Source: Candidatus Uhrbacteria bacterium
GTDB lineage: Bacteria > Patescibacteriota > Patescibacteriia > UBA9934 > GWF2-40-263
Direction: 5' to 3'
Assembly (NCBI GenBank): GCA_016844925.1
Contig: JAERTI010000056.1
Coordinates: 6,978 to 70,977 of the forward strand
DNA length: 64,000 bases
Shown: one piece after another, positions 11,920 to 56,910 of the stretch
Layout of the letters: the number at the start of each line of letters is the position of its first letter
Numbering within the stretch: the stretch's first letter is position 1
Notes under the pieces: generated by a model
Told to the model about the DNA's origin: nothing
What the model saw: the letters and a program-made list of their open reading frames with translations, nothing else
Databases searched by the model: none
Position numbers and translations under genes: made by a program

Positions 11920-12001
11920 ATTGTTTACACTTGACGTGCTGACACTCATCGCCTAACGTCCAGGCGTCGCTAAGCCATTCGAGGCGACGTGGAGTGTTGA
12001 C

Positions 12002-13489: not shown

Positions 13490-13511
13490 TACGAGTGCCA
13501 AGCAGGCACCT

Positions 13512-19276: not shown

Positions 19277-19378
19277 TTCGGCAGGGTTGCCGATGCAGGA
19301 CCGTAGGCGAAAAAGCCTTACTTGTCAATGCTTGTCTGACACGAAGTGCATAAGGTATCATCCTCACGAAACCTATCT

Positions 19379-25898: not shown

Positions 25899-26282
25899 CT
25901 ATTCCAAGATCCCTCTCTTTTTCATCACCCCCTCTGTCTTTTTAATAATTTCGGCCAAAGAGTGTTCTGTTTTTACAAGATAGAGATCGATGCCGCACTG
26001 TTTGCACGCTTCTCGATCTTCTTCTTGAGCGAGAACGGTAAGAACAATAACAGGCGTGTCTTTAAGAGCTTCGTTTGCACGGATCTCTTTGAGAAAATCA
26101 AAGCCATCTTTGACTGGCATAATGAGATCCAGCAAGACAAGATCGGGTTTTTCAGATTGCAGTAATTTCAATCCTTCATCACCGTTTTCCGCTGTAAGCA
26201 TTTCGTACCCTGCTTTTTCAAAGCCGTACTTGTAAGTCTTTGTGTAGAATTCATCATCTTCGATGAGGAGGATTTTTTTCAT
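25899..26282 (-). CDS. stand-alone response-regulator receiver domain (CheY-like)
   Basis: KILLIEDDE with the acidic pocket, phospho-acceptor LLDLIMP, and a conserved K in VKTEHS. No output domain. Confidence 0.8.
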   Translation of the reverse strand: MKKILLIEDDEFYTKTYKYGFEKAGYEMLTAENGDEGLKLLQSEKPDLVLLDLIMPVKDGFDFLKEIRANEALKDTPVIVLTVLAQEEDREACKQCGIDLYLVKTEHSLAEIIKKTEGVMKKRGILE

Positions 26283-26283
26283 A

Positions 26284-27852
26284 CTAGGCATTAGATTTTT
26301 TAGAAGCTACCGTTGGGAAGGAAAGGAAGAAGGTTGAACCTTTTCCTTCGCCCGGTGATTTGAACCAAAGTTGACCATTGAGTAATCGAACGATCATTTT
26401 TGATATGTAGAGTCCTAAGCCAGAACCACTGGCATAGACCTTTCGTGCATTATCTGCGCGGAAAAATCTTGTAAAGATTTCTTGTTGCTCGTGTTTGCTT
26501 ATGCCAATTCCATTATCTTTGATAGACAGAATAACAACTCCATCTACTTCCTCTAGAGAGATGTCGACTCTTGCACGTTGTTTACGTGAGTAATGAGCGG
26601 CGTTGGTTAAGAGATTTTGAATCACTTGCTCTGTAAGGTTTTTGTCGACACGAATTTGCGAAAGAGTCTCTGATGGTTTTTTGTAGTTGATCTTAATGCG
26701 TTTTTCTTCAAAAAGATGACTCAGTGCCCCGATAGTTTTTTCGACTAAAGACGGGAGGTCAACACGACGAAGTTGTAGATCAATTTTTCCGCCCTCAAGA
26801 CGAGAGATATCCAGCAGTTGGTCAATAAGACCGATCATACGTTCTGTTGAGACCTCGATGTCCGTTAAGAATTCTTGTTGGTGTGTGGTGAGGTGGTCTA
26901 TTCCTTCGCTCTTAAACGTTTCTAGGAGGAGTTTAATGCCTCCAATGGGGGTGCGGAGCTGATGAGAGGCAAGAGAGACAAATTCCGTCTTCATCATGTC
27001 AATTTGTTTCTCTTTTGTGATATCAACGGCAACCCCAATGAGTCCAATAGGTTTGTTGTTTTGTTTGAGAACAAAGTTATGCATCAGGGCTGGAAATGTT
27101 GAACCATCTTTTCTTTTGTGGACGATTTCACCTGAAAGATGACCCTTTTTGAGAAGTGTTTTATTAAAAGTCTCAACAGTAGTCAGTTCAGTTTCCGGGT
27201 GAAAGATTGATAAATGTTTTCCAATAAGTTCCTCTTTTTTGTATCCATGATCCTTCGCCCATGCATTGTTGACGTACGTAATATTCCCCTCGAGGTCGGC
27301 AAAGGCGATCTGTTGTGTGGATTGATCGATAACAAATTTATAACGATTGAGCTCGCCTTCGATTTTCTTTCTTTCGGTTATATCCTGTACATTTCCTATC
27401 GACCTCAGCGCTTTTCCGTTTTTATCGTATTCTGTATCACAACGTTCGTTCACGATACGAATACTGCCGTCGGGGCGAATAATTCGGTGCTCAATGTTAT
27501 AAGGCTGCCTTTTCTTAACAGAAGTCCAGTAAGCCTTATCCACTTTCTTTCTATCATCGGGATGCACTCTCTCTAAGAACGCTTCATAGGTTGCTGCAAA
27601 TTCTTGTGGCTTTAAACCAAAGATTCGATAGATTTCGTCAGTCCAGGTGAGTACGTTTTTTTCGATATCCAAGTGCCAACTTCCAAGATGGGCAATCTCT
27701 TGCGACTTGTTTAAGTTTCGCTCACTTTCTTCTAGTGCCTTTTTGGCTTTCTCGAGCTGGAAATACGCATCTCGAAGTAGGGAAACTTCAATTTCCAGAC
27801 CTTCAATCTTTTCGTGCAATTCGTCCACTTGTTTTTTTGTGTCTTTAGACAT
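26284..27852 (-). CDS. cytoplasmic sensor histidine kinase with an N-terminal coiled coil, tandem PAS domains, HisKA and HATPase_c
   Basis: H-box SHQLRTPI, N/G boxes (NLLTNAAHYS, DNGIGI, GSGLGL), and PAS-like repeats. No TM segment. Confidence 0.85.
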   Translation of the reverse strand: MSKDTKKQVDELHEKIEGLEIEVSLLRDAYFQLEKAKKALEESERNLNKSQEIAHLGSWHLDIEKNVLTWTDEIYRIFGLKPQEFAATYEAFLERVHPDDRKKVDKAYWTSVKKRQPYNIEHRIIRPDGSIRIVNERCDTEYDKNGKALRSIGNVQDITERKKIEGELNRYKFVIDQSTQQIAFADLEGNITYVNNAWAKDHGYKKEELIGKHLSIFHPETELTTVETFNKTLLKKGHLSGEIVHKRKDGSTFPALMHNFVLKQNNKPIGLIGVAVDITKEKQIDMMKTEFVSLASHQLRTPIGGIKLLLETFKSEGIDHLTTHQQEFLTDIEVSTERMIGLIDQLLDISRLEGGKIDLQLRRVDLPSLVEKTIGALSHLFEEKRIKINYKKPSETLSQIRVDKNLTEQVIQNLLTNAAHYSRKQRARVDISLEEVDGVVILSIKDNGIGISKHEQQEIFTRFFRADNARKVYASGSGLGLYISKMIVRLLNGQLWFKSPGEGKGSTFFLSFPTVASKKSNA

Positions 27853-27861
27853 GGGAGTGGA

Positions 27862-28236
27862 TTAGCTGGCAATAACCTTTTTGACTCGGGAGACTAATTC
27901 GTCGCGCTCAAATGGCTTGGTAATATAGTCCATAATACCATGCTGTTTGAGCTTATCGAGACGTTCATCGGAGATTTCAAGAACGGTCAAAAAGATGACT
28001 TTGTACTTCGGTTTGATCTTTGAGATTCGCGAAAACAAATCCCAACCAGACATATCAGGCATCATGATATCCAAAAGAAGAAGATCAAAATTGTTTACAT
28101 CAACTTCTTTCAGTGCCCGGTCGCCACTTGATACGCTGACAACTTCGTACCCTTCATTTTCTAAAATAGTCTTTACTACTTCCAATACGTCTCGCTCGTC
28201 ATCAACATGAAGGATTCGTTTTTTTGCTTTTGGCAT
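27862..28236 (-). CDS. stand-alone response-regulator receiver domain
   Basis: ILHVDDE, LLLLDIMMPDMSG, and a K in ITKP. 124 aa, no output domain. Confidence 0.8.
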   Translation of the reverse strand: MPKAKKRILHVDDERDVLEVVKTILENEGYEVVSVSSGDRALKEVDVNNFDLLLLDIMMPDMSGWDLFSRISKIKPKYKVIFLTVLEISDERLDKLKQHGIMDYITKPFERDELVSRVKKVIAS

Positions 28237-28249
28237 AGGATTACGCTCG

Positions 28250-29710
28250 TTATTTCGTTGGTTTATGTAAGTTCTTTTTTAATGGCAGTGTAAACGTAAA
28301 CGCACTTCCTTTGCCCAGACCAGCACTTTTTGCAGAAATCTTGCCACCATGAGACACGACAAAACCTTTGGCAATGGAAAGACCTAGACCAGTGCCACCG
28401 TACCTTCTTGTTATTTCGCTATCTGCTTGAAAGAAGGGGGTAAACAGTTTTTTCAAGGTTTTTTTATCCATACCGATACCCGTGTCAGTTACCGTTACTC
28501 GTACGTTGTTTTGTGTTCTACTTACATCAACATCAACACGACCGCCCTCAGGGGTAAATTTGACCGAGTTGTCCAGAAGATTGTGCATCACCTCGCTTAT
28601 GCGTTTGGTGTCGATGACGAGCAGAGGGAGGTTTTCGGCATGGCTTAAGGTAATGTCTATCTGTTTATTACGTGCGATTGATTGCATGTCATTAACGGCA
28701 TCTGAAATAATTTGACCCAAATCAGCCTCCTCAAGAATGAGCCTTATCTTTCTTGAACGAATTTTCGTGATAGAGAGTACATCCGAAACAAGATCGTTTA
28801 GATGATCACCATTTCGCGCAATCATTTCTATGGCATTTTTTTGTTTCTTATTCAGTTTTCCATAATCACCACCTAGAAGAAGCTGAGCTTGAGACTTGAT
28901 TGGAATAAGAGGGGTCTTAAGCTCATGTGTTGCCGTGTTTAGGAAGTCATCTTTAAGTTTGTTTAGTTCTTCTAATTTAGTAGCCATATCGTTAAAACTA
29001 GACGCAAGATGACCAATCTCATCCTTTGATTGTATATCGATCTTTGTATCAAGTTTTCCTTTCCCAAACTTCGTGACAGCCTTCTCAAGATTCAGAAGGG
29101 GTTTCACGATACTCCTTGAAACGATGACGGAAATTATGGTCGTAAGAACAAAAAAAGACAGTACGAGTAATAGCGTTAAGATCCTGTTTTGTTCGATGGC
29201 TGCTTGTGTCTGTTCGTAGGTTAACTCTTCCAATGATTGTGCAGCAGAAGAAACAGATTGCGATGTTATCAATAATTGAGAAATAATCCGTTCTTGCAGT
29301 GCCGTTACCAGTCCCAATGTTTCTGCTGAAGCTTGTTCTTCTGTGAGTGTTAATTCGTAGTGATAGTTTTCCACTTCTTTTTGAAAGAGATCGTCAAGGA
29401 GGAGATATTCAGCGCGAATATCTCTAACGAAATCTTGATTTCGATTATCTGTTCCGATTTTATTCAGTAGTAGGAGTCCCGAGTGATGACGTGTGTTCCA
29501 TTGTTCTAGTACACGGTCTTCTCGATGTAGGAGGTACTCATTTAACAGTAGGTTTAACTCAAAGACCGCTGTTTGAATATCAGATGCTAAGACATGTTCC
29601 TTTTCTTGGTCACTAATAATATTCGTTGTTGTAAAGACGGAAACATAAAGAAAGGAAATCAGAACAAGTGATACCAGAGTGTTGATGAAGAGTTTGTATT
29701 GGATCCTCAT
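28250..29710 (-). CDS. membrane sensor histidine kinase (two TM, periplasmic sensor region, HAMP, HisKA, HATPase_c)
   Basis: TM helices near residues 10-30 and 170-195, H-box THELKTPL, and N/G boxes (NLLDNSVKFT, DTGIGM, GGTGLGLSI). Confidence 0.85.
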   Translation of the reverse strand: MRIQYKLFINTLVSLVLISFLYVSVFTTTNIISDQEKEHVLASDIQTAVFELNLLLNEYLLHREDRVLEQWNTRHHSGLLLLNKIGTDNRNQDFVRDIRAEYLLLDDLFQKEVENYHYELTLTEEQASAETLGLVTALQERIISQLLITSQSVSSAAQSLEELTYEQTQAAIEQNRILTLLLVLSFFVLTTIISVIVSRSIVKPLLNLEKAVTKFGKGKLDTKIDIQSKDEIGHLASSFNDMATKLEELNKLKDDFLNTATHELKTPLIPIKSQAQLLLGGDYGKLNKKQKNAIEMIARNGDHLNDLVSDVLSITKIRSRKIRLILEEADLGQIISDAVNDMQSIARNKQIDITLSHAENLPLLVIDTKRISEVMHNLLDNSVKFTPEGGRVDVDVSRTQNNVRVTVTDTGIGMDKKTLKKLFTPFFQADSEITRRYGGTGLGLSIAKGFVVSHGGKISAKSAGLGKGSAFTFTLPLKKNLHKPTK

Positions 29711-29714
29711 GGGC

Positions 29715-30746
29715 TTATCGTATGATCGTAACTGCTTCAGGTTTCACTTCTTCCAAGGCGTGCAGGTAAATATAATCGAGATAATTTGGCATCTGCTCAC
29801 TTTCAACGAGATCGTTGTTGATTGCCCATCGTGCTTCAGCCTCGAGGACTCTGATCAAGGACTGCTCTAAGGTGATATCGAATGTGAACTCTTCCCAAAG
29901 GGTGATCATACTCTCTGTGTCCAGGTTGAGTCTTGTTGCGACAATTTCTTGAGATTCCTCTTTGTGCTGTTTGATGAATTCAGTGGCGGCATCCACCGCC
30001 TGCACAAAACGTTTGACTGCTTCAGGTTCAGATTTAAGGAAGGCATTCGTACTCACAAAGTTAAATGTTTCGTTGTAGATATCCGAGCTCGGTAACCTGA
30101 TAGCCATATCTCCTAAGAGGCTCACTGCATTTGTTCCGTGCGGTTCCCAGATAACAATGGCGTCAACACGTCCCTTGGCTAAAGCGTCTGGCAAATCAGA
30201 AGGGGCGATGTCGATAGCTTCTACCTCGGAGGACAAGATGGCGTTGTTCGTCAAAAAGGCATCTAGAAAAAATTGTCCAGTCGTGCCCATAGGGGTGCCG
30301 ACTTTCTTTCCGCGCAAATCTTCTGCGCTTGTCACCCGGTCATTGCGAGCGATGACTTTTACGTCTTCATAGGAGCTGACAAACGTGCCAAAGACAGAAA
30401 AATCACTTCGCTCAAAACTGTTAAGCATGATGGGGGTAGGGGCGACGGTAGAAATATCAATCCCCTGATTGCCCTCGAGCATTGCCATGAGGCTTTGTCT
30501 TCCTGAGTCAAACTCTTTGATGGTGAGGTCCAGACCGTATTCTTGAAAGTATCCCTTTTCCTCAGAAATCCAGACAGCTGCGGGAAGTAAGCTCGCTTCT
30601 ACTCCGAGCGTTGCCTTCAAGAGAGGTTCTTCTGTAGGGCTTGGTTGTGTTTGTGTTGTCCAGAAGTAACCACTCAGAATAAGAGCGCCGGTAAAGAATG
30701 TGACTGCGCCCCAGAACCAGGGGGGGATGTCATGCTTAATGTTCAT
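29715..30746 (-). CDS. periplasmic substrate-binding protein, NMT1/SsuA/TauA-like, with an N-terminal anchor; first gene of the signalling operon
   Basis: N-terminal TM/signal sequence, then a type 2 periplasmic-binding fold (VGTPMGTTGQFFLD...VDAIVIWEPH). Ends 4 nt before the HK gene. Confidence 0.65.
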   Translation of the reverse strand: MNIKHDIPPWFWGAVTFFTGALILSGYFWTTQTQPSPTEEPLLKATLGVEASLLPAAVWISEEKGYFQEYGLDLTIKEFDSGRQSLMAMLEGNQGIDISTVAPTPIMLNSFERSDFSVFGTFVSSYEDVKVIARNDRVTSAEDLRGKKVGTPMGTTGQFFLDAFLTNNAILSSEVEAIDIAPSDLPDALAKGRVDAIVIWEPHGTNAVSLLGDMAIRLPSSDIYNETFNFVSTNAFLKSEPEAVKRFVQAVDAATEFIKQHKEESQEIVATRLNLDTESMITLWEEFTFDITLEQSLIRVLEAEARWAINNDLVESEQMPNYLDYIYLHALEEVKPEAVTIIR

Positions 30747-43614: not shown

Positions 43615-43651
43615 AATGTAGACGCGTTTCAAAATTGCAAAGATGGTCGAG

Positions 43652-43673
43652 TTGAAGCTGATGATGATTCAGT
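43652..43673 (+). repeat. direct-repeat copy A (TTGAAGCTGATGATGATTCAGT), 3' of the MutS-HNH gene
   Basis: Matches 46769-46791 at 20 of 22 positions. Confidence 0.6.
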
Positions 43674-43685
43674 ATCAGCATTGAA

Positions 43686-46649
43686 TCAGTTATCAACGTC
43701 GAGCTCTAGTCCGGTACTCGTCATTTTGAACCCTTTAATCTCAATCTCTCCCGCGTGTACTTTTTTGTGGCAAGCGTTGCACAATGGCACAAGGTTGTAT
43801 TTGTGATCCTTGTGAAAGTGTTTAATGTAGCCATGCTCATTAGCGTTTTTTTGAGGAGCGATATGATGAATCTCCGAGACGGTATCACGACAGAGGCCAC
43901 AGCTCGTAGCGTAGAGATCCTTATTGTAGTTATTGCTTTGTTTTTTGGTGAGCAATGTTAAATCGTCTTCCTCTTGCGCGATTTGCTGACGAATCTTCGC
44001 TGCTAAGGCGAGGAATTTTTTGTCCATGTGTAACGATTCGGCAAACTCTAAACCATACACACTGCTCCCACTGCCTGTTTGCAATGTTCGGTCAAAAATC
44101 AATTTATCTGCTTTCTCATCATAATGAACATGTAAATGAACACTTACTACTTGCGGCAGTGCCTGTAACAAATCAATTCTTTGCAGTTGGTGTAAGTGGG
44201 TGGTGAACATGAATAACGCACCGATTTCTGAAAGACGTTGAATCGTTGCACTGACGATCGCAAGGGCAGAGAGCGTTTCTGTCCCACGACTTATTTCATC
44301 GCCGAGAATGAGACTTCGTGCCGTAGAGCGATTGAAAATGTTTTTCATTTCCATCATTTCCACCGCAAAAGAAGAAAGCCCCTTTTCAAAATTGTCTCTT
44401 GCAATAATGCGAGTAAACAGCTCTTGGAACAGCGTAAATCTCATTTGCTTGGCCGGAACAAAGAAACCACTTTGAGCCAAAATGATACACACACCCAAAC
44501 TTTTCATGAGCGAAGATTTTCCGCTCGAGTTTATTCCGTACAATAGAACGCCACGCGTGTCTTCGTCGGTCATCTTGGCCATGGTGGATGAAGATGTTGA
44601 CGCATCTTGCAACGACTTATCACCCATCACGACGTCGTTGGGAACATAAATCCCGTTTTCTTCGCGGGCTTCTACGAGAGGATGTCGGACATCCAATAAT
44701 TCCAAATAGGACGTTTCTTCAGGGCTGGTAAGAATTTGCGGGCGAACGAGATTATGAATCAAAGAAGCTTTGATATTAGAAAGTGCCACATCAATTTTTC
44801 CAATCGTTGTGATGAGAGTATTCATCAGATCACAATAGTTTGCATCAAGCTGCTCTAATTCACTGCGGAAGAGATTACGAACTAACGCGGAGATTTGTTT
44901 GTTCAAGAGCGAAATTTTCTCAGAAATTTCTCTGATGATTTCCGCCGTGATTTTTACATTGCCGGTTTGAATCTTTACGGTGAAATCACTCAGTGCATAC
45001 ACGGTGCCGTCAATTGATACATAGCTATCAGACAACGCCTGCTCAATTAAAAAGTACCTACTTTTTGTGATCGAAATATGATGTCCATCTTTCTCGAGAT
45101 GTTTAATCACAACATAATCACGTTCTGGCTTACCCGTTTGTTGTTCAATCAAATGAACAAATGCCGTCCGAATGGTTTCTAATTTTTCCTGAAGTTCATT
45201 TTTTTGTTTGATTAAACGATCGATCTCGTCGTTAAATCCGGCTTGAAAGAAACTTTGACTGATTTCACCTTGTGCGTACTTGCTCGTTTCATCCAAATTG
45301 AAAATGGTTTCTAAATGGAGAACAGCTTTTTCTAGGAGAGGTTGTTGCTCAACGAGTTCTGGGACAACGGATGAGCTTTCAATGCTGCTCAGGTGCTTTA
45401 AGATGCTCTGACTCGCAACCAAGGAATCATAAAGAAAATTGATTTCAAATGGATGCAGACGCGTAAGCTGAATGCGGCGTTTTAGGCGGTCAATATCATA
45501 GATATGCTTTAACTCCTCATCAATGTCCGCATAGATATAAATGAGCGCATCAGAGAGATCATAACGAGCCTCCAGTTCCGTTTGGTCAATGATTGGATTC
45601 GTGATTCGTTCCTTGAACAGGCGACGACCAAAACTGGTACGCGTGTTGTCAAGAAAACTGAGCACCGTCTGCTCGTTTGGATTAGGGGAAATGATGTTGA
45701 GTTGTTCGAGTGGATTGTTTCCTAGATACAGGAAGTTTTTGTCATTGATTTGTTGTGGTGCGGTAATGTTTTTCACCACCTCACGGTCATGCTCAATAAT
45801 AAACTCAAGCAAGATGGCCAACGCCTCAGATGCTAAGGGCTTTTTCTCTAAGTTTAAAAATTCAATCGATGATAAAAACGACTTTATGTCATAGCATTGT
45901 TTAAACAATTCGTTTTGATAGCCAATGGGCAAACGCTTGTTGTCCGTATGAACATTCAACTGTTCTGATAACTCTAAATACTGTCGAACGGTTTCTGGAA
46001 CGACATCTTGGCCTCCACACGTGAGCAGGACTTCATTCGGGTCATGCGATTTAAGCAGCGAAAAAAGCTGGTCTAACGCATACGTAGGGTCTTCCTGGGT
46101 ACTGTGAATTTCAAAAACGGACGTTCTCCCAGTGGTCACATCAATGGATGCGTAACCGACCGAGTAATTGTCTTTATGTTTCTCTACGATTAAAGACGTG
46201 GTGAAATTGTCATCGTTGTTGAGACTGTATTCAAAGTTGACTCCAGGAGACAAAATGTTGTCCAGATAACGCGTGACGTTTGGTGGTACACCCTGCTGTT
46301 TGATAATGACAATGGTGTACTTGTTCTCACGGATAAGTTTTTGCACATAGCGATCAAACGTCGCCGTAGGAAAACCAGCCATGAGTGGGTTCTTAACATT
46401 GTTTTCCAGAATGTTTTTGTTTTTTCGCGTCAACTGAATGTTTAAAATTTCAGCAATCTCTTTTGTTTTACCAATCTGCTTCGTTGCATTATCAACCCCG
46501 TAGATTTCAAAAAAAGATCCGACTTCCATCAGTACGACTGTGTCAGTTCCATACTTTTCTTCGAACAGCTCTTGTAGCTGTAAATAGATGGCGATCAATG
46601 ACTGATTTGTATCGTCAAGTAGCTCTTGAACACGTGCATGTATACCCAT
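43686..46649 (-). CDS. MutS-family protein fused to a C-terminal HNH endonuclease (MutS7-like architecture)
   Basis: N-terminal mismatch-binding domain (LMEVGSFFEIYGVDA), a domain V ABC ATPase (Walker A GINSSGKSS, signature SSFAVEM, Walker B LILGDEISRGT, then TTHLH), and a C-terminal HNH (CGLCRD...HHIAPQ...N...CNACHKKVH). Low GC relative to flanking host genes. Confidence 0.85.
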   Translation of the reverse strand: MGIHARVQELLDDTNQSLIAIYLQLQELFEEKYGTDTVVLMEVGSFFEIYGVDNATKQIGKTKEIAEILNIQLTRKNKNILENNVKNPLMAGFPTATFDRYVQKLIRENKYTIVIIKQQGVPPNVTRYLDNILSPGVNFEYSLNNDDNFTTSLIVEKHKDNYSVGYASIDVTTGRTSVFEIHSTQEDPTYALDQLFSLLKSHDPNEVLLTCGGQDVVPETVRQYLELSEQLNVHTDNKRLPIGYQNELFKQCYDIKSFLSSIEFLNLEKKPLASEALAILLEFIIEHDREVVKNITAPQQINDKNFLYLGNNPLEQLNIISPNPNEQTVLSFLDNTRTSFGRRLFKERITNPIIDQTELEARYDLSDALIYIYADIDEELKHIYDIDRLKRRIQLTRLHPFEINFLYDSLVASQSILKHLSSIESSSVVPELVEQQPLLEKAVLHLETIFNLDETSKYAQGEISQSFFQAGFNDEIDRLIKQKNELQEKLETIRTAFVHLIEQQTGKPERDYVVIKHLEKDGHHISITKSRYFLIEQALSDSYVSIDGTVYALSDFTVKIQTGNVKITAEIIREISEKISLLNKQISALVRNLFRSELEQLDANYCDLMNTLITTIGKIDVALSNIKASLIHNLVRPQILTSPEETSYLELLDVRHPLVEAREENGIYVPNDVVMGDKSLQDASTSSSTMAKMTDEDTRGVLLYGINSSGKSSLMKSLGVCIILAQSGFFVPAKQMRFTLFQELFTRIIARDNFEKGLSSFAVEMMEMKNIFNRSTARSLILGDEISRGTETLSALAIVSATIQRLSEIGALFMFTTHLHQLQRIDLLQALPQVVSVHLHVHYDEKADKLIFDRTLQTGSGSSVYGLEFAESLHMDKKFLALAAKIRQQIAQEEDDLTLLTKKQSNNYNKDLYATSCGLCRDTVSEIHHIAPQKNANEHGYIKHFHKDHKYNLVPLCNACHKKVHAGEIEIKGFKMTSTGLELDVDN

Positions 46650-46693
46650 AACGCCCTACATTTTAGCAACTCTCGCAATAAAATCTAGTAAGA

Positions 46694-46723
46694 CAAAAAA
46701 CCACCATTGCTGGTGATTTTTTC
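46694..46723. terminator. bidirectional intrinsic terminator, separating the upstream minus-strand operon from the MutS-HNH promoter region
   Basis: AAAAAACCACCA-ttgc-TGGTGATTTTTT. Confidence 0.7.
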
Positions 46724-46768
46724 TTGGCTCCCGCTACTGGACGCATTCAGAACAGCGAAATGGTCAGA

Positions 46769-46791
46769 TTTGAAGCCGATGATGGTTCAGT
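46769..46791 (+). repeat. direct-repeat copy B (TTGAAGCCGATGATGGTTCAGT), 5' of the MutS-HNH gene
   Basis: Matches 43652-43673 at 20 of 22 positions. Confidence 0.6.
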
Positions 46792-46800
46792 TTGTTTGAG

Positions 46801-47190
46801 CTACTTTTTGAATCTTTCGACTCGTGTTGAATAGTCAGCATAATCGAAGGTCACTACTGCAATCCAAAACAAGAACAATGCCAATCGAAAGACAAGAACA
46901 TTTCCGACCATCAATACGAGCAGTACATCCAATGTAATAAAGAGCATTCCGATCACAATCATTGAAAAGAACGTTGTAACATGACCCCAGATGAGGGCAT
47001 TTTTTGTTTCGGCATTCTTGTAACTGTAAATGAAGTTTGATGTGATGGGGGCTATGACGATCAGTCCAACAAAAAGAAGTAAGGTATCCAATCTTTCAAC
47101 TGGCATTCGAGCAACTTCGTGTTGCGTGAGTATGTAGAAAGGAATAAGCACCACATGTATTAGAATGTTTTTTGAGACAATCGATTTCAT
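46801..47190 (-). CDS. membrane protein (4 TM), unknown; in the AT-rich element
   Basis: Hydrophobic helices; no motif. Confidence 0.45.
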   Translation of the reverse strand: MKSIVSKNILIHVVLIPFYILTQHEVARMPVERLDTLLLFVGLIVIAPITSNFIYSYKNAETKNALIWGHVTTFFSMIVIGMLFITLDVLLVLMVGNVLVFRLALFLFWIAVVTFDYADYSTRVERFKK

Positions 47191-47205
47191 AAAAGTTTGT
47201 ATTTG

Positions 47206-47415
47206 TTACTTGTTTTTTGGAGTATACGTAATCATTTCCTTTCCGTAATACTCATTCACGGCAGCGGCGGCGGCAACTTTGAGCTGCTCCAGCTCTTTCT
47301 GTGAACTCAAAGGTTCATTGTTCATCATTTTTTCGATCAAAAGAGAGTTCAATTTTGTTTGAAATTGAAGTTCAATGATCGTTTTTCCAATGTCGATGTC
47401 TCCGATTTTGATCAT
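47206..47415 (-). CDS. small hypothetical protein
   Basis: 69-aa ORF, 1 nt from the upstream gene. Confidence 0.35.
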   Translation of the reverse strand: MIKIGDIDIGKTIIELQFQTKLNSLLIEKMMNNEPLSSQKELEQLKVAAAAAVNEYYGKEMITYTPKNK

Positions 47416-47416
47416 A

Positions 47417-47746
47417 CTATCTTGTATTTACCTCCTGTCGCAGGCTTTCGTTTTCTTCCTGCAAAATCCGAATCTGCTCCAAGAGCGAGGAATAGGCTTC
47501 TCCACGGTCATTCAACAACTCTTCAATCACTTGATCATTTGAAGAAACTTCACCTTTTGTCTCGTATACGATCTTACCAAGGTCAATCATCTCGGTAAGC
47601 ACGAAAACAAACGCAGCAACAACAAAAGCTACCAAAATGTAGCTCATAGTATTTTGTTGGATTTGTTGTGCGTGGTATTTGATCCTGTCCGTAATGGTCA
47701 GATCGCCACCCGTTTCGATTTTCAGTTTTTCATCGGGCATACTCAT
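47417..47746 (-). CDS. single-TM coiled-coil protein, unknown
   Basis: TM segment MSYILVAFVVAAFVFVL followed by a coiled-coil tail. Confidence 0.4.
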   Translation of the reverse strand: MSMPDEKLKIETGGDLTITDRIKYHAQQIQQNTMSYILVAFVVAAFVFVLTEMIDLGKIVYETKGEVSSNDQVIEELLNDRGEAYSSLLEQIRILQEENESLRQEVNTR

Positions 47747-47832
47747 TACAATTTTGTCACATCACTTGAATGCGTAAAGTATAGCAAAATAGCAGTTTTT
47801 TCGGTAGTATTACCGTAAATTGACCCAAAGAT

Positions 47833-48966
47833 GTGATCAAAACTGTAACAGACAGCCTGCAACGACAATACGATACGTTCATCGATGAGCCAGATGACTG
47901 GTTTTTCTTTTTGGGCTTGGCCGAGTACATGCAGTATTTGCGTACAACCGAGCTGACAATCCCGCTCATCGAAGGCGTTGAAGAGCAAATGCACCAATTT
48001 GACGATGAGTTCAAGCAGATCCATGCAGCCGTTGAAAAAGAAGCCAAACGAGCTTTTGAGGTCATTCAGGGGCGTATAGCAAAAGCAGGGATCGAAGATG
48101 AAATCATTGAGCGTGAAACAAACGAGTATCACGGTTTTCTTGACGGCACATGGAGCAGCACCGCAAGCCTTGGGCAAAGCCTCTATCGAAACGTGCGAAA
48201 CATCGTGGAAAGACTGCGAAAACTGGATAGAGATGATCTGGTCAAGGAATACTTTGTTCCGTTTGTTCCTGATCCAAAGTTGACTGAAATCTACACAATT
48301 ACACCAAGCCGTGACCGACTTGATGACCTTGAAAAGAAACAAGAGCAATCAAAGAAAACGCAGATTTGGGGTAGCTATTGGCACTTGGAACGTGCCAGAT
48401 GGGCAATCATGGACGGGTTGGACTACATGAACAGGCAGAAAGGAACCTTGCGTGGATCATTGAACCGCATCAATGCGAGTCCTCTGATCCGTGAAATGGC
48501 CGCCATGGAACGACGAGATCCAAATCCGCAACTGCAACGGTTCATCAAAAGAGATTACCTATTTCATGCTCGACGGTTTCACACGTTTGTTTTGAATACT
48601 CTCGCCAAGGTTCCAAAGTATTTGCTCGATGATCAGGAAAACAAAGATGCTGGTAGTGTTCAGCTTGCATACAGCGACGGCACAATCCACATCAGGGGAC
48701 AGTCACTCAGAATTACAAAGCGGCAGCATTCACTCCAAAATCGTCTCATGTTGAAGCTGTTTAGCGATCTGTATGTAAAGTGGGATTTTGAGGATGTTTT
48801 TGATGACCTGTACGAAGAGTCCCGTGGTAAAGATGATTGGAAAAAGCTGTACAAATTGATTGATGCCGTAAACGACAAAGTAGCCGTTGAATCAGATGCC
48901 AAGGAATTGATCCGCAAGAATCGTTACGAGATTTGGATTGATCCTGACTACCTGCCACCGAAGTAG
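47833..48966 (+). CDS. hypothetical protein (377 aa) in the element; possible C-terminal winged-helix domain
   Basis: Long ORF with no motif. The antisense 200-aa ORF is treated as a shadow. Confidence 0.45.
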   Translation: MIKTVTDSLQRQYDTFIDEPDDWFFFLGLAEYMQYLRTTELTIPLIEGVEEQMHQFDDEFKQIHAAVEKEAKRAFEVIQGRIAKAGIEDEIIERETNEYHGFLDGTWSSTASLGQSLYRNVRNIVERLRKLDRDDLVKEYFVPFVPDPKLTEIYTITPSRDRLDDLEKKQEQSKKTQIWGSYWHLERARWAIMDGLDYMNRQKGTLRGSLNRINASPLIREMAAMERRDPNPQLQRFIKRDYLFHARRFHTFVLNTLAKVPKYLLDDQENKDAGSVQLAYSDGTIHIRGQSLRITKRQHSLQNRLMLKLFSDLYVKWDFEDVFDDLYEESRGKDDWKKLYKLIDAVNDKVAVESDAKELIRKNRYEIWIDPDYLPPK

Positions 48967-49149
48967 TCCCAAAAGTCCTACAACATTTCAGAACCTCCAT
49001 TTGAGTATCGTGCCTCTGTAAAGATTCACGGTACTTTTTTGTGTCTGACGACGTAGTAATAAAACAAGAACGAATACCCGTCGATCCGAAGGTCGTCGAG
49101 TTCTTTGCGCTGCTCAACGAACTCGGACAAAAGTACGCTCCCGAACTCT

Positions 49150-49413
49150 ATGAAAATCAAGGACATTCAGATCATCCCAATCAGACCTCGTGATGGACTT
49201 GTCGGCTTTGCCAACGTCACGCTCGAAGACGGCCTCCATCTTGGCTCTATCGGCATTCACAAACGACTGGATGGTAGCGGTTACCGTATCACGTATCCAA
49301 CGAAGAAAGTCGGATCAGTAGATACACATATCTACCACCCAACAACGACGCAAACAAGCAGATTGATCGAGCAAGCCGTTACGCAAAGAGCAGAAGAGTT
49401 GTTCGACCTGTAA
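49150..49413 (+). CDS. spoVG: SpoVG-family protein
   Basis: MKIKDIQIIPIRPRDGLVGFANVTLEDGLHLGSIGIHKRLDGSGYRITYPTKK follows the SpoVG pattern (M.ITDVR....G..KA.A.ITLD..F.V.DI.V.....GLFV.MPS.K). Start at the internal ATG. Confidence 0.6.
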   Translation: MKIKDIQIIPIRPRDGLVGFANVTLEDGLHLGSIGIHKRLDGSGYRITYPTKKVGSVDTHIYHPTTTQTSRLIEQAVTQRAEELFDL

Positions 49414-49445
49414 CGGCAAATCAAAGATGTAACAAAGACGTAACT

Positions 49446-50600
49446 ATGATTGACACCGTTGTAATTATGCTTGACAAAGGCCACTACTTCATCACAGATC
49501 CGCAACGCTTTTCGCCCGCCCTGATGGTTCGAGATGAAGAAAACATTCCCTATACAAAGCATGTAAACAATCCAACAAAGCGGCAGAAAGAGGATGTCTA
49601 CTATCCTCGACTGACTTTGCACTATCGCTCATATGGAAAGAAGTTCGAGCAACCTCTCGCTATTGAGTTTTCTGTACCAAAACTACTGTATGGCAACAAC
49701 CTCGATGAGCTTGAAGATTCAGATTTCAAAACGATTGTCAGCACCCTCAAACGTCGCTGCGATGAGATGGGAGTCAAAATCTGGGTCGGATCGCTCGACA
49801 ACGCACACGTTTCAACAATCCATTTTGGAAAAAACATTGAGTTGAAAGACGGCTATACCAGCACGCTTGCGATTCAAGAAATTGCCAAGCTGCACGGCTC
49901 AACACAGCAAGACCACAACAAGGCGGACTTTCGCAACGAAGGTCATGCGTACCAGATCTACACAAAGAACAGATCAATCGTTCTGTACGACAAAATGGCT
50001 GACATCAACAAGCCTGTCAGCCGAGCCATCGACAAGGACAAGGTAGCTGCCCAGCTTTCACTCTTCGATGTTCTCAAAGAACAAAACAAGCCACCTGAAA
50101 TCCTGCGTATCGAAGTCCGATACACCAACCGACGACTTCTCAAAACCGAGCTTTCAAGGCTCGGCATCAACGTGGAGCTGACATTCCAACAGCTTTTCAG
50201 CAAAGTGATCGCCCAGAAGGTCTTGCAATCACATTGGGAGCGTATCTATGACAAGCGAGTACATTTCGCTCTTTCGATGGAACGTAGGCCGCAAGCTGTT
50301 CTCAAACAGCTTCTACTCACGCACCCAGACATGAAACCGAAACGTGCCATTGAATTGGTTGGCATGTACGTCTTGGCACGTGACAATGCTGGACTGCTTG
50401 GCGTGCGTACAGCTGTGCAATCACTTCGACCAAAAACAAATTGGCATCGCTTCAAAAAGCAGCTCGAAGCATTTGAAGACCCACCGTTTCCGCTTGTTGT
50501 TCACGGCTTCGTGAATGACATCAAAACACAGCTCAAAGACTTCAAATCGCTTCGGTATTCAGTTGCTGTCGATGCCGATGTGCGACATAATCAATCATAA
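49446..50600 (+). CDS. putative replication initiation protein (Rep_trans-like rolling-circle initiator)
   Basis: 384 aa with HAYQIYTKNRSIVLYDK and EILRIEVRY motifs resembling the Rep_trans family. Lies upstream of the recombinase. Assignment is tentative. Confidence 0.35.
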   Translation: MIDTVVIMLDKGHYFITDPQRFSPALMVRDEENIPYTKHVNNPTKRQKEDVYYPRLTLHYRSYGKKFEQPLAIEFSVPKLLYGNNLDELEDSDFKTIVSTLKRRCDEMGVKIWVGSLDNAHVSTIHFGKNIELKDGYTSTLAIQEIAKLHGSTQQDHNKADFRNEGHAYQIYTKNRSIVLYDKMADINKPVSRAIDKDKVAAQLSLFDVLKEQNKPPEILRIEVRYTNRRLLKTELSRLGINVELTFQQLFSKVIAQKVLQSHWERIYDKRVHFALSMERRPQAVLKQLLLTHPDMKPKRAIELVGMYVLARDNAGLLGVRTAVQSLRPKTNWHRFKKQLEAFEDPPFPLVVHGFVNDIKTQLKDFKSLRYSVAVDADVRHNQS

Positions 50601-50612
50601 GAACGTCATACT

Positions 50613-52175
50613 ATGCGTGGAATCATTCTTGCCAGAGTCTCAACCGACGAACAAATGCAAACAGGGCAATCAATCCCTGCTCAACTTGAACGTGCAAGAC
50701 TCTACTCAAACAAAAAATCACTCATCGTTGCAGATGACGACGAGTACCAGTTCGACGAATCATCGCTACTGGATCATCGAAAGAAGTTCGAGGCTGTTCT
50801 CGACAAGATTCGTGCATCCAAAGAACCGATAGCCTTGGTCGTCGAAACTGTTGATCGCTTGCAACGCAGTTTCAAGGAATCCGTTGAACTGGATGCGCTT
50901 CGTAAATCAGGAAAGCTCGAAATCCACTTCATCCGTGAAAACCTTGTCATCCACAAGGATTCAACGGGATCAGAGATTCAACGATGGGATCTTGCCGTAT
51001 TTACGGCCAAGTCCTACGTGTTGAGTATTAGCGACAACGTGAAGCGAACTTTTGAACGAAAGATCCGTGACGGGCAATGGCTCGGCATGGCCTACATCGG
51101 CTACCTCAACGAACGAAGCGATGACGACAAAGAAGGTTTGATCGTACCCGACCCAGAACGTGCCATGTTCATCGTACGAGCCTACGAGCTATACGCAACT
51201 GGCCTTGAATCGCTTGCCAGCGTCCGTGAGAAGCTCATAGATGCAGGTTTCCGCACTCGAAAGGGCAACAAGCCTTCCAAGAGTCAGATTGAACGTATCC
51301 TCAAAAACAAGTTCTACTACGGCATCATGACTGTGAAGGGCAAAGAATACCCACACAAGTACCAGCCGCTCATCTCAAAGGGTTTGTTCGACAAAGTTCA
51401 AGATGTTTTTGCTGGCAAGACCAGTCGACCAAACAAAGTGCTGACCTCTGACAGGTTCATCTTCAAAGGTCTCATTCGCTGCGGTCATCCTGATTGTGGT
51501 TGTACGGTCACGCACGAGCGAAAGAAAAAGAAATACAACATGTACAGCTGCACGAACTCAAAGAAAGTTCATGAAGGACGGAAGTACATCAACGAAGAAG
51601 ATTTCTTGACGCAAATCTACGGCGTATTTGAGGCTCTGACGCTTTCTGACGAGCAAGTCGAGGAAATCACCGAAGAGATCAAGAAATCGCAAGCAGCGAA
51701 GAATCTGTATCACACGAATGCTTTGAAGGGCTTGCGTGAAAAATACGACAGCTACCAAGGCAAGATCGACCGTCTTCTCGACTTATTTGTTGATGGGAGT
51801 ATTACTAAGGCGGATCATGACAGAAAGTTGAAACAGTACAAAGAAGAACAGTATGACATTGAGCGTCAGATCACCGACCACACACAGGCAGACGAAAACT
51901 TCTATTTGTCCGCAACCCAGCTACTAAACGTTGCTCGTCACGCTCGTGTGATCTTTGAGCGTTCGGAACCACAAGAAAAACGCCAACTTCTCAATTTTGT
52001 ATTTCAGAACTTCGTTTTGAACGATCGTGAATTGGTTTACGAAGTCAGAAGTCCAATGAAATCAATCATTTCCTGCAAGGAAGCAGCGTCACACAAACAT
52101 AAAACGACCAGCGTTTCTGCTGATCGTCCTATGTGGCTCGGGGGGAGGGATTCGAACCCTCGACCCATTGGTTAA
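50613..52175 (+). CDS. large serine recombinase/integrase
   Basis: N-terminal resolvase domain with catalytic Ser in GIILARVSTDEQ, a recombinase domain, a zinc ribbon (CGHPDCGC...YSCTNS) and a coiled coil. The last roughly 14 codons (GGRDSNPRPIG) are read from the antisense of the tRNA-Asn 3' half. Confidence 0.85.
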   Translation: MRGIILARVSTDEQMQTGQSIPAQLERARLYSNKKSLIVADDDEYQFDESSLLDHRKKFEAVLDKIRASKEPIALVVETVDRLQRSFKESVELDALRKSGKLEIHFIRENLVIHKDSTGSEIQRWDLAVFTAKSYVLSISDNVKRTFERKIRDGQWLGMAYIGYLNERSDDDKEGLIVPDPERAMFIVRAYELYATGLESLASVREKLIDAGFRTRKGNKPSKSQIERILKNKFYYGIMTVKGKEYPHKYQPLISKGLFDKVQDVFAGKTSRPNKVLTSDRFIFKGLIRCGHPDCGCTVTHERKKKKYNMYSCTNSKKVHEGRKYINEEDFLTQIYGVFEALTLSDEQVEEITEEIKKSQAAKNLYHTNALKGLREKYDSYQGKIDRLLDLFVDGSITKADHDRKLKQYKEEQYDIERQITDHTQADENFYLSATQLLNVARHARVIFERSEPQEKRQLLNFVFQNFVLNDRELVYEVRSPMKSIISCKEAASHKHKTTSVSADRPMWLGGRDSNPRPIG

Positions 52176-52208
52176 CAGCCAATTGCTCTGCCACTGAGCT
52201 ACCCCCGA
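52134..52208 (-). tRNA. tRNA-Asn (anticodon GTT), CCA encoded
   Basis: Manual fold: acceptor TCGGGGG/CCCCCGA, D arm GCTC-AGTGGCA-GAGC, anticodon arm ATTGG-CTGTTAA-CCAAT, variable loop GGGTC, T arm GAGGG-TTCGAAT-CCCTC, discriminator G, then CCA. Confidence 0.85.
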
Positions 52209-52254
52209 ATGTTTCTTTTTTTAAGAACGACAGGAGTATAACAAGGGTTTTGAT

Positions 52255-55277: not shown

Positions 55278-55646
55278 TTATCGTTCTGATCTTGGGTCCC
55301 AGGTGTCTCTAGGCTGCTTCTTTTGATGCGCGTACGCATCATTAATGCTCATTTGTCTCCGCACGTCCTCGAGATCTTTGAGGTCCTGTACGTGTTGCGC
55401 AAGTTTCTCTCGGCGCGCTTTTACGCGAGGGTGCTTACCCGCTTCACCGAGAAGGCGCCCAAAGAGTTTGTTTCGATACTTCCCAGGACGCACCCCCATG
55501 ACATTCAGCGCCTTGCCCGCCGCACCTTTTCCATCTGGATCACGATCGAGGTCTGTGTTGTCGAGTGTGTAGTTAAACTGTTCGACGATCTTATTCCACG
55601 TCTCCTGCTCAATGCGCCGACGTTGTTCGTAAGGAAGGTACCCCAT
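55278..55646 (-). CDS. hypothetical basic protein
   Basis: 122-aa ORF overlapping the metK 3' end by 38 nt. No motif. Could be spurious. Confidence 0.3.
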   Translation of the reverse strand: MGYLPYEQRRRIEQETWNKIVEQFNYTLDNTDLDRDPDGKGAAGKALNVMGVRPGKYRNKLFGRLLGEAGKHPRVKARREKLAQHVQDLKDLEDVRRQMSINDAYAHQKKQPRDTWDPRSER

Positions 55647-56718
55647 AGGCGTCTATTGTATCAGGCTCGTCGATCCGTTCCCAGGGCGCGCTCGCGTGGG
55701 TGAAGTGTCCGCTGGTGCAGTTGGCTTGGTAGATCGGTGTGCGCAGGTCCAGCGTGGCGATGATGGCTTTGGGGCGGAAGTCGAAGTTTTCAAGGAGATG
55801 GTCAAGCGTCCGTCCGTCGCCATCGATGGCGTGCACCATCAGAGGCTCTGCCATGCCGATCGCGTAGGCAACGGAAACGAGACATTCATCAGCAGCGCCG
55901 GAAGCGACAAGTTGCTTTGCGACGTAGCGCGCCATGTAGGCACCTGAGCGGTCTACCTTCGATGGATCTTTTCCAGAGAACGCTCCGCCACCATGGGGAA
56001 TCACACCGCCATAGGTGTCGACCATGATCTTGCGACCGGTGAGTCCTGCATCTGCCTCAAACCCGCCAACAACAAAGCTCCCGGAGGGATTGATGATGAG
56101 ATTGGTTGGGGGAGCGAGTCGGTAGTGGGAGAGGACGGGAATGACGACGTGCGTGACCAACTCAGCGCGAATCTGTTCTTGCGCCACATCTTCATTGTGT
56201 TGAACACTCAAGAGAATGGTTTCAATCAGTCCGTCACGAACGGTTACCTGACTCTTTCCATCAGGACGCAGCCAGGCAAGGGTCTTGTCGCCTCGCACTT
56301 GATCGAGTCGACGTGTCAGAGCATGTGCCACGGCTGTAGCGATCGGGAGGAGTTCTGGTGTTTGGTTGCAAGCATAGCCGTACATGATTCCTTGATCGCC
56401 GGCACCACCATCATCTACTCCTGCAGCGATTTCGGGTGATTGCTGCACGACGTATTCCAGGATGTTGAGTGGGTCCGTGTGGCCGATATCGCGATACACA
56501 CGCTCAGCGATGGCCCGGTGGTTTACTTGTGCTGTTGAAGTAATCTCTCCACCAATGACGAGGGTGCCATGGGAACCAAACGTTTCGACGGCGACACGCG
56601 CAGATGGATCTTGGGCAAGGTGAGCGTCGAGTATCGCATCGGAAATCTGATCACAGACTTTGTCTGGGTGACCGGCGGTAACAGACTCACAAGTATAAAG
56701 AGAAGGGAGGTGACTCAT
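55609..56718 (-). CDS. metK: S-adenosylmethionine synthetase
   Basis: GHPDKVCDQISDA, the GGGAFSGKDPSKVDRS P-loop, and DTYGG. Confidence 0.9.
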   Translation of the reverse strand: MSHLPSLYTCESVTAGHPDKVCDQISDAILDAHLAQDPSARVAVETFGSHGTLVIGGEITSTAQVNHRAIAERVYRDIGHTDPLNILEYVVQQSPEIAAGVDDGGAGDQGIMYGYACNQTPELLPIATAVAHALTRRLDQVRGDKTLAWLRPDGKSQVTVRDGLIETILLSVQHNEDVAQEQIRAELVTHVVIPVLSHYRLAPPTNLIINPSGSFVVGGFEADAGLTGRKIMVDTYGGVIPHGGGAFSGKDPSKVDRSGAYMARYVAKQLVASGAADECLVSVAYAIGMAEPLMVHAIDGDGRTLDHLLENFDFRPKAIIATLDLRTPIYQANCTSGHFTHASAPWERIDEPDTIDAYGVPSLRTTSAH

Positions 56719-56724
56719 AAGGGT

Positions 56725-56910
56725 AAAAATAAAACGACATCTCGCAGGAGATGTTCATAAAGAATTATCTGTCCCACGTAGGGCCACGTAAAACTCTTCG
56801 AGTCACGTGGCGGGGCTGGAAGGCGCACCGTCTTCTTTCGAAAGGTTGCGGGTGGGTCAATGAGCCAGAACTCTCACCACACTCTTGATATTGAATTGTA
56901 GAGAAAGACT
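56725..56910 (-). promoter_or_regulatory. candidate SAM-I-like riboswitch leader of metK with an intrinsic terminator
   Basis: On the minus strand: AUAUCAAGAG (plus 56882-56891), GCAACC (plus 56844-56849), GGUGC (plus 56825-56829) and UUCCAGC (plus 56815-56821). A terminator ACAUCUC-cugc-GAGAUGU plus U-run (plus 56725-56754) ends about 10 nt before the ATG. The P1 pairing could not be reconstructed. Confidence 0.4.

Follow-up and report, generated by a model that had tools for sequence, protein, structure and literature searches.

A small mobile element of Candidatus Uhrbacteria, probably integrated at the 3' end of a tRNA-Asn gene, whose serine integrase gene appears split at its own attachment site

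How a recombinase gene comes to end inside a tRNA gene is the question raised by a 64,000-nucleotide stretch of the Candidatus Uhrbacteria contig JAERTI010000056.1 (positions 6,978 to 70,977; the window in what follows, and the numbering used throughout). The sole tRNA that ARAGORN finds in it, tRNA-Asn(GTT), occupies 52134-52208 on the minus strand and is also recognised by Rfam (73.6 bits, 52137-52208). An open reading frame (ORF) for a large serine recombinase (LSR), at 50613-52175 on the plus strand and 520 amino acids (aa) long, has its final 42 nt inside the antisense of that tRNA gene. The explanation that we consider very likely, taken as a whole, is that 46725-52139 is an integrated mobile element of 5,409 bp, that it belongs to a wider family of such elements, and that its integrase gene (int) carries the attachment site (att) and has been split there on integration.

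The initial annotation of this DNA had the LSR ending within the antisense of tRNA-Asn and its last residues, GGRDSNPRPIG, arising by translation of the tRNA complement, and both statements hold, to the base. The last 14 codons (52134-52175: TGG CTC GGG GGG AGG GAT TCG AAC CCT CGA CCC ATT GGT TAA) correspond, in reverse complement, to the CCA end, acceptor strand and T arm of the tRNA and to a part of its anticodon stem, and the TGG codon given by the encoded CCA is Trp508 of the LSR. The tRNA gene itself is intact, with its CCA encoded, and its acceptor stem forms a perfect 7 bp across the junction region. Such an overlap is not a matter of chance, since an antisense tRNA or tmRNA (transfer-messenger RNA) is found at the LSR end in 52 of 79 related loci. 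A second partial copy of the tRNA-Asn 3' segment, which the initial annotation had proposed as a check, does not occur in the window at a length of at least 14 nt, k-mer and repeat searches of the 64 kb giving only chance 10-12-mers, and so an att of the long-repeat, tyrosine-integrase type was rejected.

What takes the place of a long repeat is the severed end of the enzyme. A hidden Markov model (HMM) built from the C-termini of unsplit LSR homologues finds at 46725-46799 on the plus strand a W codon followed by the 23 residues LPLLDAFRTAKWSDLKPMMVQFV and a stop codon at 46797-46799, scoring 42.2 bits where the next best place in six frames of the 64 kb scores 7.5 bits. This native LSR tail, now 5.4 kb off at attL, aligns with the unsplit tails of P0072, P0111, P0113, P0104 and P0060. 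When position 52138 is joined to 46729 the int frame is kept and an ORF of 531 aa is restored, ending WLPLLDAFRTAKWSDLKPMMVQFV and a stop; of the 520 aa of the integrated form, residues 1-508 are native and the last 12 (LGGRDSNPRPIG) are antisense tRNA. Past the 25-bp half-site the tails of the family keep the pattern [FL]RT[ILV][DN]W..[IL]...[LM] with conservative replacements, and in the AlphaFold2 model of an unsplit relative the last 25 residues are two helices (predicted local distance difference test, pLDDT, 73-84), and the tail thus appears to be a genuine portion of the enzyme.

The tail remnant and the restored int frame together set the left end of the element at 46725-46730 and the right end at 52134-52139, and these ends both read TGGCTC and have no other sequence in common. 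The initial annotation had offered two candidates for the left end, of which the terminator region near 46.70 kb is borne out, with its exact junction at 46725-46730, and the GST/MutS junction near 43.64 kb, which has no tail remnant or P'-type motif nearby, is not; the extent of 43640-52210 (8.6 kb) given there contracts to 46725-52139, about 5.4 kb. Nor does the AT-richness that had been taken as a mark of the element distinguish it. The GC content of the element is 0.45 against 0.489 and 0.534 in its flanks in a very patchy window, and as GC spans 0.40 to 0.66 across the window, composition is uninformative as a boundary marker.

Details of the attachment sites come from a comparison of 23 attL/attR pairs from related loci, numbered so that the T of TGG is position 1. 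Between attL and attR the identity is 0.91, 0.96, 0.96 and 0.83 at positions 4-7 and declines to both sides, and its peak falls at tRNA nt 71-73. In the window the attL core TGGCTC (46725-46730, plus strand) is the repeat of 52134-52139 and is followed by the P' half-site of the former attP (46731-46755, plus strand), which has a GGACG motif and a mimic of the T-loop, TTCAGAAC, at 46746-46753. At the other end the P half-site and attR core take up 52114-52139 (plus strand, core 52134-52139), and the B' half-site at 52140-52159 (plus strand) is the tRNA acceptor 3' strand and T arm, with the T-loop motif TTCGAAC at 52151-52157. The motif TTCAGAAC ends at position 29 as against 24 for the T-loop motif, and the window has no other such motif. 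Across the family the P' arms have TTYAGAAC ending at position 29-30 and the B' arms have the T-loop TCGAAY ending at 24-25, the offset between the two being exactly 5 bp in all 16 of the 16 pairs that possess both motifs. Rutherford et al. (2013) showed that the motif for the zinc-ribbon domain of serine integrases is shifted by 5 bp between the two sites, spanning half-site positions 16-24 in attP but 11-19 in attB (PMC3783163). Applied to the motif positions here, that spacing puts the central dinucleotide at positions 5-6 (TC, tRNA nt 72-71), in agreement with the identity peak, and so we infer that the crossover dinucleotide is TC at tRNA nt 71-72, which would be 46729-46730 at attL and 52138-52139 at attR.

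Rejoining the ends in the two possible ways gives an attP junction of the window with GATCGTCCTATGTGGCT directly before CCCGCTACTGGACGCATTCAGAAC and an attB junction with GGTGATTTTTTCTTGGCT directly before CGGGGGGAGGGATTCGAACC, the one rebuilding the 531-aa int ORF and the other, separately, the tRNA and its terminator. The reconstructed attP has partial dyad symmetry, CGTCC and TTCTG of the P arm recurring in the reverse complement of P'. The attL B arm (46695-46724, minus strand) contains a hairpin at 46702-46715 between an A run and a T run, a terminator-like site which we read as the displaced intrinsic terminator of tRNA-Asn, and the B arms of other family loci likewise have a hairpin and a T run. 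Of the earlier proposal that attP lies in the 3' end of int and that integration rebuilds the tRNA 3' end, the first part stands and the second does not hold for the T arm and acceptor, which the element neither carries nor rebuilds; it gives only G73-CCA76 (tRNA nt 73-76). It follows that GGRDSNPRPIG is host-encoded read-through and no part of the native enzyme. The target genes for tRNA-Asn and tRNA-Gln have the terminal GAGCCA and the T arm GGGTTCGAATCCC in common and differ in their acceptor stems, which fits a recognition of the centre and of the T-loop with tolerance of what lies between.

Some members of the family differ in what they bring to the tRNA. Where the P arm reads TTG or similar and not TGG (L074, L013, L021, L026, L068), the integrated tRNA gene is without an encoded CCA; the tRNA then ends CAA at attR and the host TGG is kept at attL (L074 and others), which places the CCA to the left of the crossover. 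Hosts of such elements would depend on CCA addition for that tRNA. At the tRNA-Gln relative L003 (165-175 and 7068-7078) attL has TGGT and attR TGGC, and integration there seems to have changed the discriminator base of tRNA-Gln from A73 to G73.

The enzyme itself is readily placed. It has the Pfam domains Resolvase (PF00239, 2.1e-11), Recombinase (PF07508, 3.6e-15) and Zn_ribbon_recom (PF13408, 2.2e-6), it matches the integrase family phrog_95 at 7.7e-67 and the C-terminal domain of A118 integrase (4kis) at 5e-7, and its best NCBIfam match is CcrB. The catalytic R8-V9-S10 (R8-x-S10, with the serine nucleophile) is invariant in 20 homologues. The AlphaFold2 model of the relative P0072 matches full-length LSR structures with E down to 7e-19, among them the cryo-electron microscopy structures 9dxd and 9dxh (serine integrase-att complexes), Bxb1 and phiC31, and the LSR-DNA crystal structure 4kis; it has long helices at 346-424, as is expected of the coiled coil inserted in the zinc ribbon.

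Homologues of the LSR number more than 1,700 at E of 1e-20 or less, and those with a named source are mostly from Patescibacteria. Among the 120 best, 38 end in antisense T-arm peptides (for example RDSNP, QDSNL and ESNP), in 63 the stop codon comes a few codons at most after a W/L-x motif, where an antisense tRNA would presumably begin, and 10 end in the conserved peptide LLDAFRTIDW or continue from it. A scan of genome collections gave the 79 related loci already mentioned, from Patescibacteria, Chlamydiota and a few other metagenome-assembled genomes (MAGs). In the 52 with an antisense tRNA or tmRNA its 3' end lies within 70 nt of the end of LSR homology, the targets being Asn (15), Gln (9), His (9), tmRNA (7), Tyr (6), Glu (2), Leu (2), Trp (1) and Asp (1), and a tail remnant in the orientation of the LSR, 5-11 kb upstream of it, is picked up by the HMM in about 40 of the loci. 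At several of them (L007, L008, L013, L014, L035, L046, L066, L010, L033) there are two or three remnants, or the LSR has for its tail the P' arm of another element, which suggests that elements inserted in tandem or one after another at the rebuilt site. A Chlamydiota subclade (L051, L054, L057, L062, L069, L075, L077) abuts the 3' end of tmRNA (ssrA), with tails like WRWRESNSRP, and other Chlamydiota members are found at a tRNA-Tyr/tRNA-Thr pair. Two unannotated records named 'Bacteriophage sp.', at 35% identity, have the same junction at tRNA-Leu and tRNA-Glu.

The nearest relative, P0002, is 86% identical to the LSR of the window and is encoded on Candidatus Uhrbacteria and metagenome contigs (L003-L005), where the element core is a 366-aa protein of unknown function, an 87-aa SpoVG-like protein, a 384-aa protein 81% identical to that of the window, and the LSR. 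This element abuts tRNA-Gln(CTG) among flanking genes unrelated to those of the window. DNA similarity between the two covers 47745-52159 and a detached 92-nt block at 46714-46804 (L003 154-245, beginning TGGCTCCCGCTACTGGACGCATTCAGAAC, 83% identical), and stops at both predicted junctions. The tail remnants of the two are identical in 16 of 23 residues, as compared with 86% for the whole protein, with frame and stop alike. Another relative, L092, is circular. It is a megahit contig with a terminal overlap of 141 nt, which implies a circle of 9,734 bp, and the independent JGI contig L093 is identical to it. L092 has no tRNA; its LSR, 47% identical to that of the window, is unsplit and has the tail WLPLLVAFRTIDWRALSTEMAQMSFT, and the 384-aa protein too has a homologue there. 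In L092/L093 (3871-7912), as on the contig of P0060, a type III restriction-modification pair (N6_N4_Mtase and ResIII) stands directly upstream of the LSR. The family is large and occurs mainly in MAGs of Patescibacteria and Chlamydiota, and its core is the LSR, the 384-aa putative initiator and the SpoVG-like protein.

A pathway that would join these features starts from the free circle, in which the int ORF would contain attP, with its centre about 23 codons ahead of the stop. The integrase would recombine attP with an attB made up of two halves, B being the DNA downstream of the tRNA gene, usually its terminator, and B' the acceptor 3' strand and T arm, with crossover at tRNA nt 71-72, TC on the plus strand. 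The T-loop would act as the distal motif of B', that for the zinc-ribbon domain, and its mimic in P' would sit 5 bp further out. As the element supplies G73-CCA the tRNA-Asn would stay intact, the tRNA terminator would be shifted 5.4 kb away, the last 23 int codons would be stranded at attL, and the integrated int would read into the antisense tRNA to give 520 aa with a foreign 12-residue tail. What the sequences themselves show is the anatomy of the element, its recurrence across the family, the geometry of the att sites, the unsplit gene on a circular relative and the absence from host relatives. The copy in the window may currently be active, and the exchange of tails may have a regulatory meaning. 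With the tRNA terminator displaced, read-through from the tRNA would run antisense through int. The 5' part of int has on its minus strand (50658-50803) three terminator-like hairpins, the best at 50746-50719 and followed by ATTTTTTGTT; speculatively, read-through from the tRNA could stop at these hairpins.

Where the element gives way to the host can be seen in host relatives. The neighbour to the left, MutS-HNH (43686-46649, minus strand), is a protein of 987 aa with four MutS domains and a C-terminal HNH nuclease matching PHROG HNH families, which we take to be akin to the MutS-plus-HNH fusions of some viruses and organelles. It has a cluster mate of at least 90% identity, P0242, and the contigs that encode P0242 are the host relatives L094-L098, whose flanks are 87-94% identical to the window and reach to a varying extent on each side by contig. 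In L094 and L095 GST, MutS-HNH, tRNA-Asn, DUF2914 and MetK are on a single contig, and L098 extends to DUF2914. The tRNA-Asn is present without adjoining LSR, 384-aa or SpoVG-like genes in L094, L095, L096 and L098, and that of L094 is identical to the window's in 75 of 75 positions. The CCA end in the host relatives directly abuts the terminator sequence CAAAAAACACCAGTTAAACTGATGTCTTTTGC, which aligns with the window B arm at a score of 12.5, where shuffles have a mean of 3.1 +/- 1.55 and 0 of 500 reach 12.5. The initial annotation had also proposed looking for an empty tRNA-Asn site in relatives, and this was found in so far as the element is absent, but a different segment of 2.65 kb is present. 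That segment (L094 7302-9950, also L095-L098, against the window gap 46694-52133) has genes for a MazG/PRA-PH-like protein of 117 aa and a protein of 610 aa with no Pfam match, and beside MutS a second terminator followed by TGGTTCCGC, resembling an att-type junction; no tail remnant or LSR relic was found in the 2.65-kb interval, the maximum being 5 bits. The interval between tRNA-Asn and MutS-HNH is a variable hot spot.

These comparisons bear on three other accounts of the locus. That the island is larger, reaching from the tRNA back to the GST/MutS junction (about 43.64 kb) and counting MutS-HNH among its cargo as the initial annotation had it, might be argued from MutS-HNH being richer in AT than any other part of the region (GC 0.418) and matching phrog_8439, a phage family of unknown function, at 2e-66. 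Yet about 43.6 kb there is neither a tail remnant nor a P'-type motif, MutS and GST occur in none of about 90 related LSR loci, and both genes are syntenic and about 94% identical in the L094-L098 relatives without the LSR element; this conserved position and this absence make them host genes, and we regard the larger island as highly improbable. Much the same low standing has the view that the window is an assembly chimera in which two genomes were joined via the conserved tRNA-Asn segment. One Logan contig of SRR13374099 stops within the tRNA, at 52191, and another begins there, at 52164, and the GC content, about 0.47 before the tRNA, is 0.57-0.62 beyond it on the right; however, a perfect 7-bp acceptor stem folds across the join, and L094, L095 and L098 hold MutS-HNH and GST to one side and DUF2914 to the other (with MetK in L094 and L095) on single contigs, from which it follows that the two flanks of the window belong together. 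Least probable of all is that the gene encodes a resolvase or invertase resident in the chromosome, beside tRNA genes by coincidence, and not the integrase of a mobile element. A Resolvase domain is by itself generic, but the same gene set occurs at different tRNAs among unrelated flanks and is absent from host relatives, a circular relative exists, and the att architecture is typical of serine integrases.

A less improbable alternative, still one that we think unlikely, is that the element integrated as described and is now an immobile relic whose recombinase, without its native C-terminal helices, no longer excises. Two scans of metagenomes and one of viral sequences gave neither an attP circle nor an exact attB, the integrated ORF is without the 23-residue tail for which two helices are predicted in a relative (pLDDT 73-84), and the tail remnant has diverged from that of L003 (16/23) further than has the whole protein (86%). 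Against a relic, all seven ORFs of the element are intact, the remnant is still in frame and has its stop codon, the enzyme retains its conserved catalytic residues, and the scans were for exact matches in collections that probably do not hold the source sample. The integrated, mobile-element explanation given at the outset has itself points to answer. The crossover was placed by sequence comparison only, and the L013 pair conflicts with position 6 and the L003 pair with position 4; the B arm has little dyad symmetry to B'; and the site in the host relatives is no clean deletion, there being the extra 2.65 kb between terminator and MutS-HNH. The excised circle and the exact empty site of the window element were not found in the JGI metagenomes and IMG/VR, where exact attB (ATTTTTTCTTGGCTCGGGGGGAGGGATTCG) and exact attP junctions gave 0 matches in collections probably without the source sample. 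No recombination directionality factor is recognisable in the element, the SpoVG-like protein and the small ORFs being candidates for one, and the replication role of the 384-aa protein rests on a weak and remote similarity. Lastly, the Logan contigs of SRR13374099 break inside the tRNA (52164-52191), and the join rests on another assembly. These contigs, of 59,057 and 79,655 bp, have ends that overlap by 28 nt at 52164-52191. The break is probably a graph branch at the anticodon/D-arm region caused by other tRNA-Asn genes in the sample; as it falls in that region and not in the att core, it was rejected as a sign of excision.

Between its ends the element carries, besides the LSR, six genes. 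Three small ones at 46801-47746 (minus strand) encode proteins of 129 aa (about four transmembrane segments), 69 aa and 109 aa (one transmembrane segment and a coiled coil), with no homologue in any related locus and no significant Pfam, PHROG or PADLOC match. A 377-aa protein of unknown function (47833-48966, plus strand) is common only to the closest relatives, with 46% identity in L003-L005 and weak matches in L055 and L037; it has no family match in Pfam, PHROG, NCBIfam or PADLOC, and by inspection no Walker A motif. The SpoVG-like core protein of 87 aa (49150-49413, plus strand) matches PF04026 at 1.5e-6, just under the gathering score, and has homologues inside 32 related loci. The other core protein, of 384 aa (49446-50600, plus strand), has homologues in 37 related loci and in the circular L092 and is a putative replication initiator, distantly like inovirus gpII and Rep_trans. 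Its residues Y52 and Y181 are invariant. The protein itself is without a Pfam match; one of 23 homologues matches Phage_CRI (PF05144) at 1e-4 and two of 23 match Rep_trans (PF02486) at 0.011. The label Rep_trans-like given to it by the initial annotation is accordingly met with in weak matches of single homologues (0.011) and not in the window protein. Its AlphaFold2 model (pLDDT 86) finds, by Foldseek against BFVD, four unnamed viral proteins at E of 1e-8 to 6e-7 with TM-scores of 0.4-0.5, and an Inoviridae sp. protein at 8e-5, and no match in the PDB. It is plausible from the homologues and the modelled fold that this is a rolling-circle initiator; no convincing repeats that might be iterons or a nick site were seen in the element. 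No ORF of the element has a Pfam or PHROG match to a morphogenesis ATPase of the pI/Zot type, and an inovirus was rejected on that ground, as was a cargo of defence systems given no PADLOC match.

Among known systems the phage serine integrases (A118/LI, Bxb1, phiC31, SPbeta) have the same domain architecture and fold as the window enzyme, short att sites with a central dinucleotide, and a distal motif that in attB stands 5 bp nearer the centre than it does in attP. Serine integrases characterised so far have their attB in protein-coding or intergenic DNA and their attP outside the int ORF. An attP within int, a tRNA target and a partitioning of int on integration are known from the SSV1-type integrases of archaeal fuselloviruses; unlike the window enzyme, those are tyrosine recombinases, with int split in two large parts and inactivated, and with a long duplicated tRNA segment. 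Mageeney et al. (2020) stated that serine integrases were not known to target tRNA or tmRNA genes, gave 14 computed cases out of 297 and called for experimental proof (PMC7192596). That survey overlooked a precedent in the ssrA islands of Dehalococcoides, where McMurdie et al. (2011) described DsiB, a CcrB-like LSR of about 540 aa, the 3' end of whose gene always overlaps the att; its stop codon lies outside the island, and the gene was suggested to be complete only on the circle (PMC3146451).

DsiB (ACZ62382) is the closest precedent of the window element. Alike are the LSR 3' end overlapping the att in a tRNA-like gene, the match to CcrB, and the tmRNA target of the Chlamydiota subclade. The window family differs in targeting true tRNAs (Asn, Gln, His, Glu, Tyr, Leu, Trp, Asp), and the window element in its shared core of 6 bp as against a 20-bp direct repeat in the ssrA islands, in an apparent crossover at the end of the acceptor stem and not in the T-loop, and in having within 46725-52139 no second (DsiA-like, small) serine recombinase and no ParB or Mom, which together with RecF make up the integration module of the ssrA islands; its core genes, those for the 384-aa and SpoVG-like proteins, set it apart by the published description. 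None of the 79 best genome loci comes from a Dehalococcoidia record. A full-text literature search gave, apart from the DsiB paper, no description of the Patescibacteria/Chlamydiota LSR family or of tRNA-targeting LSRs with an internal attP. The phiRSM-type elements, as Askora (2011) is summarised in PMC7192596, have a serine recombinase that integrates a small element with a rolling-circle-type Rep at a tRNA 3' end. They differ in that their enzymes are small, resolvase-like S-Core proteins without Recombinase and zinc-ribbon domains, and in being true inoviruses with a morphogenesis ATPase. In function the closest analogy is the integration-dependent immunity described by Broussard and Hatfull for the mycobacteriophages BPs, Brujita and Charlie, where attP lies in a coding sequence beside a tRNA-type attB (PMC3694055). 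There too free and integrated genomes express different C-termini, although it is a repressor that is split, by a tyrosine recombinase and with a proven degradation tag, whereas here it is the serine integrase.

Elsewhere in the window a SAM-I riboswitch (56762-56894, minus strand; 45.9 bits, just over the gathering score) lies upstream of metK (55609-56718, minus strand). Islands with a GC content of 0.65, against about 0.49 overall, are found at 1-2000, 12000-13500 and 18000-19300 and have long overlapping ORFs on both strands, including ORFs of 540 and 552 aa without a Pfam match, the third island holding an oxidoreductase of the Mqo/DAO type. At 26000-30000 the GC content is 0.40-0.42 and two histidine kinases are encoded.

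Serine integrases are the main tools for the insertion of large DNA, and tRNA genes have generally been thought unused by them. The family would supply pairs of enzyme and att for studying how LSR specificity evolves, members 86% identical having switched between tRNA-Asn and tRNA-Gln, and might yield integrases whose targets already exist in many genomes. A more general idea, which is tentative and which we would call possible more readily than probable, is that of a widespread clade of integrases that uses the universal 3' end of tRNA and tmRNA genes, with its CCA, acceptor strand and T-loop, as one half of attB, keeps attP in its own ORF, and by the swap of tails senses its state of integration. 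If so, the enzyme would be made at full length, including its two C-terminal helices, from the free element, and with a swapped tail and other stability or directionality from the prophage, in analogy to integration-dependent immunity with the recombinase itself as the object of control, and antisense read-through from a tRNA with a displaced terminator would possibly reinforce the effect. The split int is in this respect a testable case of integration-dependent control of a recombinase, and the family, as a common small mobile element of Patescibacteria and Chlamydiota, belongs to groups whose mobile elements are poorly charted.

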